Shown here piece by piece: positions 57,942 to 60,400 of a stretch of DNA of 64,000 bases. The stretch comes from Bacillales bacterium UBA7278. Its GTDB lineage: Bacteria; Bacillota_I; Bacilli_A; RFN20; CAG-826. Made by a program: the position numbers and the translations under genes. The stretch spans positions 140,279 to 204,278 of the forward strand of contig DKRQ01000019.1 of the NCBI GenBank assembly GCA_002472275.1, read 5' to 3'. Numbering within the stretch: the first letter of the stretch is position 1; every line of letters begins with the position of its first letter. The notes under the pieces are model-generated. The model was given only the letters and a program-made list of their open reading frames with translations, was not told the origin of the DNA and did not search any database.

Positions 57942-58889
57942 ATGAAAGAAAAACCCGAAATCTGCCCCGTTTGCAAAGGAAGGCTCTTCCTCACCAATCG
58001 CGACGGGACCAAGACCTGCGCGAGCTGCGGTCATACCCTAGGCACCCCATCCGCGCATGGCGGACGTTCCGCTGCCGCCCCCGTCAGGCCCTCTCCCTCC
58101 AAGACGGAGAAGTGTCCTTCCTGTGGCTCCGTGGCCAACTACGTCAGTACCGACGCCGACGGCAAGGAGATCTACGCTTGCTCCTTCTGCGGCTCGAAGT
58201 TCACCCCTAAGCCGCGCGTCGAGGCCAAACCCAAAGAACCAGAACCCGAAAAACCCGCGGCCCCCCTCAAAGACGAGCTAGACGGCAGGGAAATCTTCGC
58301 CCTTGCCAAAGCCAATACGGTCGAGATCTTCTGCCGCAGTGGCTCCGGCGCCTCGGCGGGATCCGGCTTCTTCATCGCCGATAACTTCGTGATGACCAAC
58401 GCCCACGTCGTCTTCGATGACTTCGGCGGGGCAAACCCGACCCCGTCCTCCTACATCGCCGTTTGCTTCAAAGGAGGCAAGCAACATGGCGCGGAAATCC
58501 TCGCGGCCAACCTCGACGAGGACATGGCGATCCTAGCGACTGACCTCTCTTGCTCCGCCATCGCCGAAATCGCGAAGGAGATGCCCGAGACCGGCGAGAC
58601 CATCTACGCGGTCGGCAACTCTGCGGGACAAGGCATGTGCATCATGGAAGGACTCGTGGCCGACCAACTCCGCGAGATCGCCGACAACGACTACATGATG
58701 ATCTCCGCGAACATCGTCGGCGGCAACTCCGGCGGCCCGATCTTCAATAAGCACGGCAAAGTCGTCGGCATCGTCACCCTCGGTTCCAACGAGGCGGTCG
58801 CGATGAACTATGGCATCCCCGTTCCCCGCATCGAGAGATTCATCAAGTCGGTGGAACAAAAAGTCGGCAAGAAATTCGCCCGTAAGTAA
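57942..58889 (+). CDS. Double zinc-ribbon / trypsin-like (S1C, HtrA-type core, no PDZ) serine protease
   Basis: CPVCKG-x12-CASCGH and CPSCGS-x16-CSFCGS. Triad contexts MTNAHVV, DMAILA, GNSGGPIFN. Confidence 0.7.
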   Translation: MKEKPEICPVCKGRLFLTNRDGTKTCASCGHTLGTPSAHGGRSAAAPVRPSPSKTEKCPSCGSVANYVSTDADGKEIYACSFCGSKFTPKPRVEAKPKEPEPEKPAAPLKDELDGREIFALAKANTVEIFCRSGSGASAGSGFFIADNFVMTNAHVVFDDFGGANPTPSSYIAVCFKGGKQHGAEILAANLDEDMAILATDLSCSAIAEIAKEMPETGETIYAVGNSAGQGMCIMEGLVADQLREIADNDYMMISANIVGGNSGGPIFNKHGKVVGIVTLGSNEAVAMNYGIPVPRIERFIKSVEQKVGKKFARK

Positions 58890-58900
58890 ACAAGGAATGA

Positions 58901-58930
58901 ACCGGTAGGGGCTCCCTATCGGTTTTTCTT
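58901..58930 (+). terminator. Rho-independent terminator after the protease gene
   Basis: accggtagg / loop ggctc / cctatcggt, followed by ttttctt. Confidence 0.7.
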
Positions 58931-58963
58931 AATGTTCGCGTGCAAACGCGATAAAGTAATTCC

Positions 58964-60400
58964 ATGCCGAAAACCAAAGTACCGCAGAACGTGAAGCCCG
59001 AAGGCTATTGGAGGGCCATCGGGGCTTTTTCCATCGATTTGGCCCTAACGATCGTGGCCATCGTCCTCCTCTATGTCTCGATTGGCAACACCCTTATTTA
59101 TAAGGCCGTCGACTATGCGGGCGACATCGCCAAGATGGACGCCTTCATGGAAGGGACCGCCCTCGTCAATATCAAGGCCCCCAAATCCTATGGCTATTTG
59201 GACTTCCAGGACAAGGAAGGGGAAGTGCCGGCCTATCAAAAGTACATCGATCGCGTTTGGAACTATTTCACCGTCTTATGCGCGGACCCCAATTCGGGAT
59301 ATGACATCAACCCGCCGATGACCTCCTTCGATAACGAACACGACTTCGTGCCCTTCACCGGCGAGAAGACCGTCGAAAACATCGGCAAATGGGTCTATGA
59401 CCATTACTTTACCAGCAATCTTTGGAAGGCCCCTGTGAAAGAGGGCACCCAGGATCCCGACTATTCGAAGGCCCCGATTCCCGCCGAAGACCCGACGGGA
59501 CGCGAGGCCAAACTGAAGACCGCGATGTATGACGTTTCCACGACCACCCCAAAAGGAACCTACGTCTTCACCGTGAGCCACATCTTGGCCCAGAACAAAT
59601 ACGCCGCTTTGGCCAAAACCGAAAGGCTCCATGGCTGGTTCGCCTGGATGCCTTGGTTCGCGGTGGCCCCCGTCATCTTCTTCTTCGTCATCCCCGTGGC
59701 GAGCCGTAACGGCAGGACCATCGGCAAAAGGATCGTCGGAACAGCGGTATTAGGAAGCGACGGCTATACCGCCAAGAAGCTCAACATCGTCCTTCACTAT
59801 TTCTTCCCGACCATCTATTGGTTCATTCTGATGTTGCCTTATCAAGGCATAACCTTTCCCCTCTTCGTCTTATTGCTCCTAGTGGAATACATGACTTTGG
59901 TCATGACCCACAACCATCAATCCATCCACGACAAGATCGCCCAGACGATCGTAGTCAACGCCAAGCAATCCACGTGGTTCGCGAGTAGGGAGGATGAAGA
60001 GGAATATCTCAAGAGCCACCCCAATTCCTACGTCGCAAAGCTTCGCAGGGACGAGGAATGGGAATCCAATCCCCGTTACGCGGCGACCACCGCGGCCATC
60101 GCCGCCCAGGACGCCATCGTCGACTCCACGACGATCGGCAGGGCCAGGAAGGAAGCCGAGGCCATCTCCTCCTTCGACGAATTCGAGCGCAAATCCGATG
60201 AGGATTACGCGAGAAGGGAATCCGAGGCAAAGGCTAACTCCGAGCTTCAGGAAGAGCCCGAAGAGGAACTATCCGAGCAGCAGAAGCAAGAACTCGCCGA
60301 CCTCGCCAAGATGGAAGGCCTAAGCGAAGAAGAAGGCTCCGCCGCCCTCGAGGAAGAAGAACCCGAGGGCGAGGAAGACGACTTCGCCGACAAGAAGTAA
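58964..60400 (+). CDS. RDD-family membrane protein with a long acidic C-terminal tail
   Basis: YWRAIGAFSIDLALTIV, RNGRTIGKRIVG, SIHDKIAQTIVV (R-D-D pattern). C-terminal E/D-rich ~130 aa ending EEDDFADKK. Confidence 0.65.
   Translation: MPKTKVPQNVKPEGYWRAIGAFSIDLALTIVAIVLLYVSIGNTLIYKAVDYAGDIAKMDAFMEGTALVNIKAPKSYGYLDFQDKEGEVPAYQKYIDRVWNYFTVLCADPNSGYDINPPMTSFDNEHDFVPFTGEKTVENIGKWVYDHYFTSNLWKAPVKEGTQDPDYSKAPIPAEDPTGREAKLKTAMYDVSTTTPKGTYVFTVSHILAQNKYAALAKTERLHGWFAWMPWFAVAPVIFFFVIPVASRNGRTIGKRIVGTAVLGSDGYTAKKLNIVLHYFFPTIYWFILMLPYQGITFPLFVLLLLVEYMTLVMTHNHQSIHDKIAQTIVVNAKQSTWFASREDEEEYLKSHPNSYVAKLRRDEEWESNPRYAATTAAIAAQDAIVDSTTIGRARKEAEAISSFDEFERKSDEDYARRESEAKANSELQEEPEEELSEQQKQELADLAKMEGLSEEEGSAALEEEEPEGEEDDFADKK

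Follow-up and report, generated by a model that had tools for sequence, protein, structure and literature searches.

The stretch of DNA analysed here, referred to as the window, comprises 64,000 nucleotides (nt) of contig DKRQ01000019.1 from Bacillales bacterium UBA7278 (assembly GCA_002472275.1, forward strand positions 140,279 to 204,278). Two plus-strand genes fill its interval 57942-60400. The first encodes an HtrA-type serine protease with two N-terminal zinc ribbons (ZnR), and the second encodes a membrane protein of the RDD family. The protease gene closes an operon whose other products resemble proteins of the endosomal sorting complexes that are required for transport (ESCRT), AAA+ ATPases and SPFH scaffolds. 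A prediction made earlier from the letters of the window (the original prediction) had linked both genes to this machinery; our analysis supports the link for the protease and not for the RDD gene. The features of the interval are:

57930-57933, plus strand: Shine-Dalgarno sequence GGAG, 8 nt 5' of the protease ATG, read from sequence
57942-58889, plus strand: gene for the ZnR-ZnR-HtrA-like serine protease, 315 amino acids (aa); eighth and last gene of the operon
57963-58028, plus strand: zinc ribbon 1 (C8, C11, C26, C29); invariant Cys, weak Pfam match to Zn_Ribbon_TF (E 1.8e-6), predicted local distance difference test score (pLDDT) ~90
58113-58190, plus strand: zinc ribbon 2 (C58, C61, C80, C83); invariant Cys, pLDDT ~90
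58278-58865, plus strand: HtrA/DegS-like chymotrypsin-fold domain, from PDB profile and Foldseek matches
58404-58406, 58521-58523 and 58728-58730, plus strand: codons of the catalytic triad H155, D194 and S263
58899-58925, plus strand: terminator-like hairpin with a 12-bp stem and a T-run (dG -30.1 kcal/mol, z -5.1)
58964-60400, plus strand: gene for the RDD membrane protein, 478 aa (Pfam PF06271)
60407-60435, plus strand: terminator-like hairpin with T5, 3' of the RDD gene (z -5.9)

The ribbon-bearing protease and its operon

Both ribbons of the protease have the spacing CxxC-x14-18-CxxC and are followed by a linker rich in Pro, Lys and Glu. Pfam Trypsin_2 covers aa 140-277 (E 1.9e-24), no Pfam match to a PDZ domain was obtained, and the chain stops ~7 residues past the C-terminal helix of its catalytic domain. 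When the family profile was compared with the PDB, the top matches were only HtrA, HTRA1, DegP and DegS chains (E 3.5e-23; range 1e-23 to 1e-16). An AlphaFold2 model (pLDDT 83.7) was matched by Foldseek to the protease domains of DegS-deltaPDZ, DegP and HtrA1 (E ~2e-14), and the best 50 matches were nearly all DegS, DegP, DegQ and HtrA1 chains. The best NCBIfam match, degP_htrA_DO (TIGR02037), reached 69 bits against a cutoff of 416. The linkers flanking ribbon 2 (aa 37-51 and 100-109) have pLDDT <50 and differ in length between orthologues. Since the ribbons themselves are well modelled, 'tethered' is a fair term for this arrangement.

The N-terminus of the protease is charged (MKEKPEICP) and the chain has no hydrophobic segment, its maximal Kyte-Doolittle mean over 19 residues being 1.08, compared with 2.43 for the RDD protein. 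Cys4 ribbons, as a rule, belong to proteins that work inside the cell. On these two grounds the protease is predicted to be cytoplasmic. The original prediction, which had described two ribbons N-terminal to an HtrA-type core devoid of PDZ domains and signal peptide, was accurate in these respects. It had also called a cytoplasmic S1C protease unusual. This is correct for canonical HtrA proteins, but the situation is not unprecedented: Trypsin_2 domains without a signal peptide occur in defence proteins, and the PADLOC models with Trypsin_2 that match our protease are RT-Protease_XI, LmuA and Avs1b. All eight ribbon Cys are invariant in 25 orthologues and the triad is intact in 23 of the 25; the GNSGGP and TNAHV motifs are among the best-conserved alignment blocks of the family. 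One sequence, P0009, was set aside. It consists of the N-terminal part of the protease, a transmembrane (TM) segment and a GGDEF domain, is nearly identical to P0004 as far as about residue 245 and then switches sequence before the catalytic Ser; it is a probable deletion or assembly chimera and was not used.

The upstream part of the operon contains the following elements:

50622-50649, plus strand: candidate promoter of the ESCRT-like operon, TCGATA-16-TATAAT with TG, a sigma-70 consensus match only
50697-51644, plus strand: first operon gene, for a protein with an SPFH fold, a long helix and a C-terminal ribbon, 315 aa
51573-51626, plus strand: ribbon of the SPFH protein, aa 293-310
52611-52635, 53205-53228, 55090-55114 and 57810-57876: acidic-aromatic C-terminal peptides of operon proteins

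No plus-strand terminator was found between the promoter-like site at 50622 and the hairpin at 58899. The protease gene is, from these signals, predicted to be the last of eight co-transcribed genes. The seven genes before it form a core with the order ZnR-SPFH (~315 aa), coiled-coil protein (~320 aa), Snf7-like protein (Snf7a, 192 aa), AAA ATPase, Snf7-like protein (Snf7b, ~198 aa) and two further AAA ATPases. The SPFH protein lacks a TM segment and is soluble. The three AAA ATPases are paralogous members of the classic clade, with Cdc48, VAT and AFG2 as best PDB matches and katanin at 1e-39. Two of the related loci (numbered with L) deviate from this gene set: L007 has an extra AAA1-like gene (313 aa, 2899-3840) and an AAA3 split into 377 and 116 aa (5614-7113), and L014 has a fourth AAA gene of 296 aa (7991-8881).

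The operon proteins share a style of C-terminus. Snf7b ends in DFFxELDI or DDFFSELN[IV] in every locus, the low-GC lineage included, AAA3 tails often contain DDFFxxLDD, the coiled-coil protein ends in AFDF or MFDF, and Snf7a ends in SFNFQ or SFILx. These acidic-aromatic peptides are candidate recognition elements or short linear motifs. The protease family itself ends in a short conserved hydrophobic-basic peptide (such as KKFARK, HFKRAK, RFERR or INFRLK; 58872-58889 in the window), whose charge is the reverse of that on the acidic tails found elsewhere in the operon.

Distribution of the protease and of the RDD gene

The protease family is sharply bounded (P0001-P0026, E <1e-78, mostly 300-340 aa, corresponding to ~26 clusters at 90% identity), and the next match lies at 1e-31. 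The operon with the protease has so far come from uncultured Bacilli only, and the named samples are ruminant guts. In L001, L003, L004, L006 and L007 the protease gene is the last after the same seven-gene core, and the same is true of L012 (Bacilli bacterium RGIG3712), L016 and L024. Loci that were recruited via Snf7 or SPFH have the protease in five cases (one of them frameshifted) and lack it in one. A variant of 28-35% GC, L027, encodes an SPFH protein that is only 29% identical, and here a 264-aa protease with a single N-terminal ribbon is encoded directly 5' of the SPFH gene, which is the opposite operon end. Its TNAHV, EEDIAIL and GNSGGP motifs and its His-Asp-Ser triad are intact. Taken together, 11 of 12 evaluable clusters combine protease and core. 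The proteases of the other loci are 28-64% identical, stem from genomes of 32% and 55% GC and are found at both operon ends; no family member was seen outside the core context. In addition, the longest contigs of the protease and SPFH orthologues match in size (18,600, 18,350 and 9,531 nt), which suggests three further co-occurrences. Retention across such deep divergence and through a changed gene order argues strongly for a functional link between the protease and the core.

The RDD protein matches PF06271 with 40.5 bits (cutoff 24.1) over aa 217-326. Its N-terminus is predicted to be inside, followed by TM1 (aa 16-49), a ~170-aa outside insert, TM2-4 (aa 224-316) and a cytoplasmic tail (aa 335-478). 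The first helix carries R17 and D25; D25 and D323 are invariant in 8 homologues. The tail is strongly acidic, with a net charge of -26 over aa 335-478 and 39 D/E versus 17 K/R over aa 349-478, and the protein terminates in EEDDFADKK. We found no sigma-70-like promoter for the RDD gene.

The RDD gene follows the protease gene only in the lineage of the window and in its nearest relatives, L008 and L009 (RDD proteins 66% identical). In the 11 other evaluable clusters, the flanking sequence that could be read (up to 10 kb) does not contain it. A strong terminator-like hairpin splits the two genes in the window and in L008, where analogous hairpins lie 3' of both the protease and the RDD gene. Other RDD homologues (32-33% identity) are encoded beside uvrC/mutS2/rnhB (L010) or directly after rpsL-rpsG-fusA-tuf (L011). 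Residues F404, D405, E406 and E408 of the SFDEFE motif are invariant in the RDD homologues and the terminal EDDF[AV]D recurs in unlinked ones, whereas the cluster-adjacent orthologue P0122 ends before the terminal DDF. The protease that adjoins the RDD gene in L008 is P0006, which has lost its triad. We judge the RDD gene to be a separate transcription unit of the chromosomal backbone and not a component of the system.

The original prediction had named the protease and the RDD protein a pair at the end of the cluster. With regard to the protease, the alternative that it is a chance neighbour of the ESCRT-like/AAA core does not fit the 11 of 12 clusters. The pair, on the other hand, is contradicted by the flanks of the 11 other clusters and by the terminator between the genes in both lineages where they adjoin. 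The terminator-bounded unit and the acidic tail of the RDD gene were described correctly, but the DDF peptide is a trait of the RDD subfamily. The role of a membrane receptor is compatible with a cytoplasmic tail and finds no support in synteny or in the tail motifs. For the same reasons, motif conservation in unlinked homologues and the missing DDF of P0122, the tail was rejected as a cluster-specific docking peptide. An assignment of the RDD protein as AuxB was also discarded, the NCBIfam match being non-significant (E 0.056; 12 bits versus a cutoff of 300).

The window is chromosomal. Upstream it carries an Fe-hydrogenase gene, cysS, rpoB, rpoC, fusA and tuf, and downstream there are nadE and pncB. 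Between tuf (end 39327) and the RDD gene lies a block whose outer limits are a lipoprotein gene at 40047 and the stop codon of the protease at 58889. This arrangement suggests that the ESCRT-like operon and an adjoining ABC-type operon (see below) resemble a block inserted into an older tuf-RDD neighbourhood, although the L011 homologue is possibly a paralogue. The ~700 bp between tuf and the first gene of the block (39328-40046) are non-coding and contain several terminator-like inverted repeats; they may mark the block junction.

A proposed role for the protease and its alternatives

HtrA-type proteases cleave chains where these are unfolded, and PDZ domains normally act as their gate. Classic AAA ATPases pull polypeptides out and thread them, the regulation of ESCRT-III polymers works via their C-terminal tails, and SPFH scaffolds repeatedly partner with proteases (HflK/C with FtsH, stomatin with STOPP). 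Against this background we think it reasonably probable that 57942-58889 encodes a cytoplasmic accessory protease that is dedicated to the ESCRT-III-like/AAA+/SPFH operon and docked by its ribbons, and that the RDD gene is not part of the system. In such a model the ribbons would replace the PDZ domains as the targeting or docking module and would hold the protease on a membrane-proximal assembly formed by the SPFH-ZnR protein, the coiled-coil protein and the two Snf7-like proteins. The three Cdc48/Vps4-class AAA ATPases could then hand unfolded subunits or cargo to the protease for destruction. Alternatively, the protease might clip the tails of the Snf7-like, coiled-coil or SPFH proteins. 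Cleavage of remodelled substrates and processing of the ESCRT-like subunits had both been put forward in the original prediction, and both are hypothetical. Either route would amount to an irreversible remodelling step or to turnover, and by analogy it would parallel a split version of an SPFH-caged FtsH or the proteasome-driven removal of CdvB from archaeal ESCRT-III rings. Only tentatively do we extend this to an ESCRT-like membrane-remodelling machine of Bacilli, with Snf7-like polymers, three AAA ATPases and an SPFH-ZnR organiser, whose cycle would be gated by the protease clipping ESCRT-III-like or SPFH subunits. Since the operon directly follows ftsA-ftsZ in one lineage, conceivable tasks of such a machine are division, the release of vesicles or the repair of membranes.

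Several observations weigh against a dedicated protease acting in an ESCRT-like machine. L001, L003, L004, L006 and L007 were recruited via the protease itself and thus carry an ascertainment bias. The protease gene of L018 is frameshifted, and the 16-kb contig of L014, which is the high-GC cluster that diverges most, contains no protease. In P0006 (L008:601-1569) the triad has changed from H to T, D to S and S to A, and in P0015 the catalytic S has become A; both proteins keep their full length, the eight ribbon Cys and the fold-determining residues. From these residue losses and the frameshifted copy it follows that catalysis is dispensable in some lineages; a non-catalytic role must also be under selection, or the gene must be decaying at times. 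As to the partners, Pfam Snf7 matches the two Snf7-like proteins with E 5.6e-5 and 7.9e-5, both under the gathering score, and the best three PDB matches of the Snf7a profile, all CHMP1B, are weak (E 0.015-0.029). Pfam detected no MIT signature in the N-terminal regions (80-110 aa) of the AAA ATPases. Finally, in genomes without an adjacent copy the RDD protein could be encoded elsewhere and act in trans.

The catalytically altered proteins P0006 and P0015 would suit a non-catalytic adaptor, in which the HtrA-like groove binds peptide tails, the ribbons bridge partners and proteolysis is secondary or vestigial. The intact triad of 23 of 25 orthologues and of the distant L027 protein, together with GNSGGP and TNAHV being among the best-conserved blocks, makes this improbable. 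The absence of the protease from L014, and the unrelated LRR_5 lipoprotein genes that are inserted between AAA3 and the protease in some loci, could be taken to mean that it is a fortuitous neighbour of the core. We regard this as highly improbable in view of the 11 of 12 clusters, the 28-64% identity, the two operon ends, genomes as different as 32% and 55% GC and the lack of any family member seen outside the core context. A conflict or defence system, where the AAA ATPases would sense or remodel a phage or stress signal and the protease would be a destructive or signalling effector, appears unlikely. Its models would be IetAS, which combines an AAA ATPase with a protease, and Avs and RT systems that bear a protease. 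PADLOC relates the protease domain to RT-Protease_XI (8e-21), LmuA and Avs1b and the AAA ATPases to IetA (1e-25 to 1e-34). The cluster of L016 is flanked by genes for a reverse transcriptase, HNH, SLFN helicases and a MazG-like protein, a Schlafen AlbA_2 gene is found downstream in L014, and the distribution is patchy and lineage-restricted. However, the PADLOC matches are at the domain level and no better than generic Pfam AAA or Trypsin_2 scores, and in IetAS the IetA ATPase is combined with IetS, a subtilisin-like protease of S8 and not of S1. The SPFH protein, the two Snf7-like proteins and the coiled-coil protein point to membrane remodelling, other loci adjoin housekeeping or division genes (ftsA-ftsZ, rpsD-ezrA, ileS), and the viral contigs scanned contained no homologue.

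In an extension of the original prediction, the protease and the RDD protein would form a functional pair, with the RDD protein as a receptor that recruits the soluble machinery, or as a regulator, through its acidic DDF tail. The two genes do adjoin in the window as well as in L008/L009, the strongly acidic tail has a predicted cytoplasmic location, and its SSFDEFE and EDDF motifs loosely resemble the ends of operon proteins (NAFDF, SAFNFQ, DFFSELDI, SAFDDFLSGIDD). There is also a precedent for a complex of a protease with an RDD protein: in Bacillus subtilis SppA-SppI, the RDD protein SppI (YteJ) binds the serine protease and inhibits it via its C-terminal region (PMC7568657). As at our locus, a serine protease gene adjoins an RDD-family gene, but the SppA-SppI pairing is operonic and conserved, whereas here strong terminators separate the genes in both lineages and 11 other clusters have no RDD gene in their visible flanks. 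Clan and topology differ as well: SppA belongs to S49 and has its active site outside the cytoplasm, and our protease is of the Trypsin_2/S1C type. Moreover, the tail motifs are invariant in homologues of unrelated context, P0122 lacks the terminal DDF, and the protease partner in L008 is the catalytically dead P0006. We consider a functional pair about as improbable as the adaptor and prefer a ribbon-docked protease of the operon.

With HtrA/DegP/DegS (MEROPS S1C) the protease has in common the fold, the His-Asp-Ser triad and the best PDB matches. It differs in its lack of PDZ domains, signal peptide and membrane anchor, in its two N-terminal Cys4 ribbons and in the operon with AAA ATPases. 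Judged from its sequence, it is not filed as a canonical HtrA protein, as neither the PDZ nor the export features were found, and a PDZ-less, ribbon-bearing HtrA-like protein is of no described type. Partnerships of SPFH proteins with proteases are known for stomatin with the NfeD/STOPP protease and for prohibitin with the m-AAA protease. The likeness lies in an SPFH scaffold, AAA activity and a protease brought together at the membrane; in the present case the AAA and protease parts are separate chains, the protease belongs to S1C and not to M41 or S49, the set also includes ESCRT-III-like proteins, and the SPFH protein has no TM segment. Calpain-7 and Rim13/PalB reach ESCRT-III via MIT domains, and Sulfolobus CdvB is degraded by the proteasome. 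Here the likeness would be one of concept only, a protease at the polymer that makes a step irreversible, as those cases use calpain or the 20S proteasome with MIT-MIM contacts and have no homology to the present protease.

A close parallel for the SPFH protein is found in the pspA operon of B. subtilis, where YdjI is a Band-7 protein whose C-terminus bears a ribbon, while YdjG carries two at its N-terminus (PMC11237479, PMC8581546). As in PspA-YdjGHI (samGHI), where the partner is an ESCRT-III-superfamily protein, a soluble SPFH protein with a C-terminal ribbon is encoded here together with putative members of that superfamily. In our operon, however, the ESCRT-III-like proteins resemble Snf7 more closely than PspA, three AAA ATPases are present, and the two-ribbon module is on the protease and not, as in YdjG, on an NTF2-like domain with a TM segment. 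A Pfam scan of the ESCRT-like operon revealed no YdjG-type partner and no YdjH-type partner with a TPM domain. Archaeal Meth_adaptin ESCRT loci (Makarova et al. 2024) also encode an SPFH-coiled-coil-ribbon protein (PMC10936438). Those systems are archaeal, include adaptin-appendage and GOLD proteins and are described with no mention of a protease (PMC10936438), whereas the present one is bacterial and has the ZnR-protease. SPFH cages and HflKC-FtsH are discussed in PMC10936438 and PMC7568657. No protease component was found in the ESCRT and Psp surveys that we searched (PMC10936438, PMC11237479), and full-text literature searches returned neither a trypsin-like protease in bacterial ESCRT-III/AAA operons nor this Bacilli operon.

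According to reviews, Vps4-like ATPases and archaeal- or eukaryote-type ESCRT components appear to be absent from bacteria (PMC7619361, PMC10936438). An operon in which Snf7-like proteins occur together with three AAA ATPases of the classic clade and an SPFH-ZnR protein would contradict this picture. Its extra conserved gene encodes a protease whose class is usually restricted to the envelope and which seems to have been re-tooled for the cytoplasm, with ribbons in place of PDZ domains. Should the polymer, or substrates extracted by the AAA ATPases, prove to be its target, the eight genes would offer a compact test of how proteolysis gives ESCRT-III/SPFH remodelling a direction, and would show how HtrA-type targeting can work without PDZ domains. 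We rate the system as an extension of known kinds, either of the SPFH/AAA/protease partnership or of proteases at ESCRT-III, and its RDD half as ordinary; treating the RDD gene as a mere neighbour avoids a wrong assignment as 'receptor'.

Zinc ribbons and neighbouring genes at the locus

The original prediction had noted zinc ribbons at a terminus of three locus proteins. We scanned the window's 52 non-overlapping open reading frames (ORFs) with 100 aa or more for CxxC-x6-30-CxxC. Only three contain the pattern, 49486-50481 (minus strand), 50697-51644 (plus strand) and 57942-58889 (plus strand), so that all ribbon ORFs of the window fall within 49.5-58.9 kb. They correspond to the first protein of a divergent operon, the SPFH protein, in which the four C-terminal ribbon Cys are invariant in 21 orthologues, and the protease. 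The ribbon theme is real, but it has already been described around ESCRT-III/SPFH modules. For the divergent protein, the location needed a correction: its ribbon is truly N-terminal only if translation starts at M55 (nt 50319), giving 277 aa instead of the 331 aa of the listed ORF. This start is supported by orthologues of 277 and 279 aa. The relevant features are:

49486-50319, minus strand: gene for a soluble 277-aa protein with an N-terminal ribbon, first gene of the divergent ABC-type operon
50224-50292, minus strand: ribbon of this protein, aa 10-32

C10, C13, C29 and C32 of this ribbon are invariant in the L021 and L022 orthologues. A profile of ribbon 2 of the protease matched it with E 3.6e-4 (among 847 window ORFs), weak evidence that the two ribbons may recognize a common docking site. 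A search of 1.84 billion representatives with a 20-sequence profile of the double ribbon (protease aa 1-90) returned, beyond the protease family, only long poly-ribbon proteins and no specific relatives; ten of the poly-ribbon matches, scanned with Pfam, had no informative partner domain. We do not claim homology of the double ribbon to YdjG, as the profile found only its own family and generic poly-ribbon proteins.

Further neighbours of the operon were recorded in the window and in other loci. BspA-type LRR_5 genes lie directly 5' of the protease in five loci, the rearranged L027 included:

L001:7228-9975, L003:6870-9988, L007:7129-9969, L024:13351-16203 and L027:180-1973: LRR_5 genes 5' of the protease gene

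Four of the five encode lipobox lipoproteins; the L027 protein has no signal peptide, and in this locus its gene and that of the protease both occupy the operon's 5' end. These genomes are rich in LRR_5 genes, the window having two more (27522-29567 and 32265-34814), and the association may be due to chance. In L019:231-5638 and L020:387-5320 (Bacilli bacterium RGIG8459, the same cluster as L015) the operon begins ~250 bp after mraZ-rsmH-ftsA-ftsZ, and in L003 and L012 the cluster adjoins rpsD and ezrA. The region before the cluster in L016 (1-8742) contains an RVT_1 reverse transcriptase, HNH, two SLFN-g3 helicases and a MazG-like gene, and a vWA-TerF-like gene lies downstream of the cluster. 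In the window, two overlapping ORFs come after the RDD gene (60498-61825), one for a 283-aa protein with DUF3990 (E 4.7e-26) and one of 159 aa; neither was seen near any other cluster.

The divergent operon (43612-50319, minus strand) encodes the ribbon protein, a Big_3 surface protein (~620 aa), a lipoprotein (~300 aa), two multi-pass membrane proteins that are putative permeases, and an ABC ATPase. It is kept in L021:1-4238, L022:3150-9776 and L007:11005-16967, whereas the visible flanks of L004, L006, L012, L016 and L019 do not contain it. In L007 its orientation is convergent; in the window, in L021 and in L022 it is divergent. The operon may represent a second, looser module of the ESCRT-like system. 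As with 49486-50481, the listed ORF of its ABC ATPase (43612-44799, minus strand) is too long, the protein being likely 274-283 aa rather than 395. At the far end of the divergent operon lies a gene for a second, unrelated trypsin-like protein (41732-43447, minus strand; Pfam Trypsin E 2.8e-7), followed by a gene for a 562-aa lipoprotein (40047-41735). The trypsin-like protein has an N-terminal hydrophobic segment, likely starts at M56 and is probably secreted. Together with 57942-58889, the locus would thus encode one exported and one cytoplasmic S1 protease.

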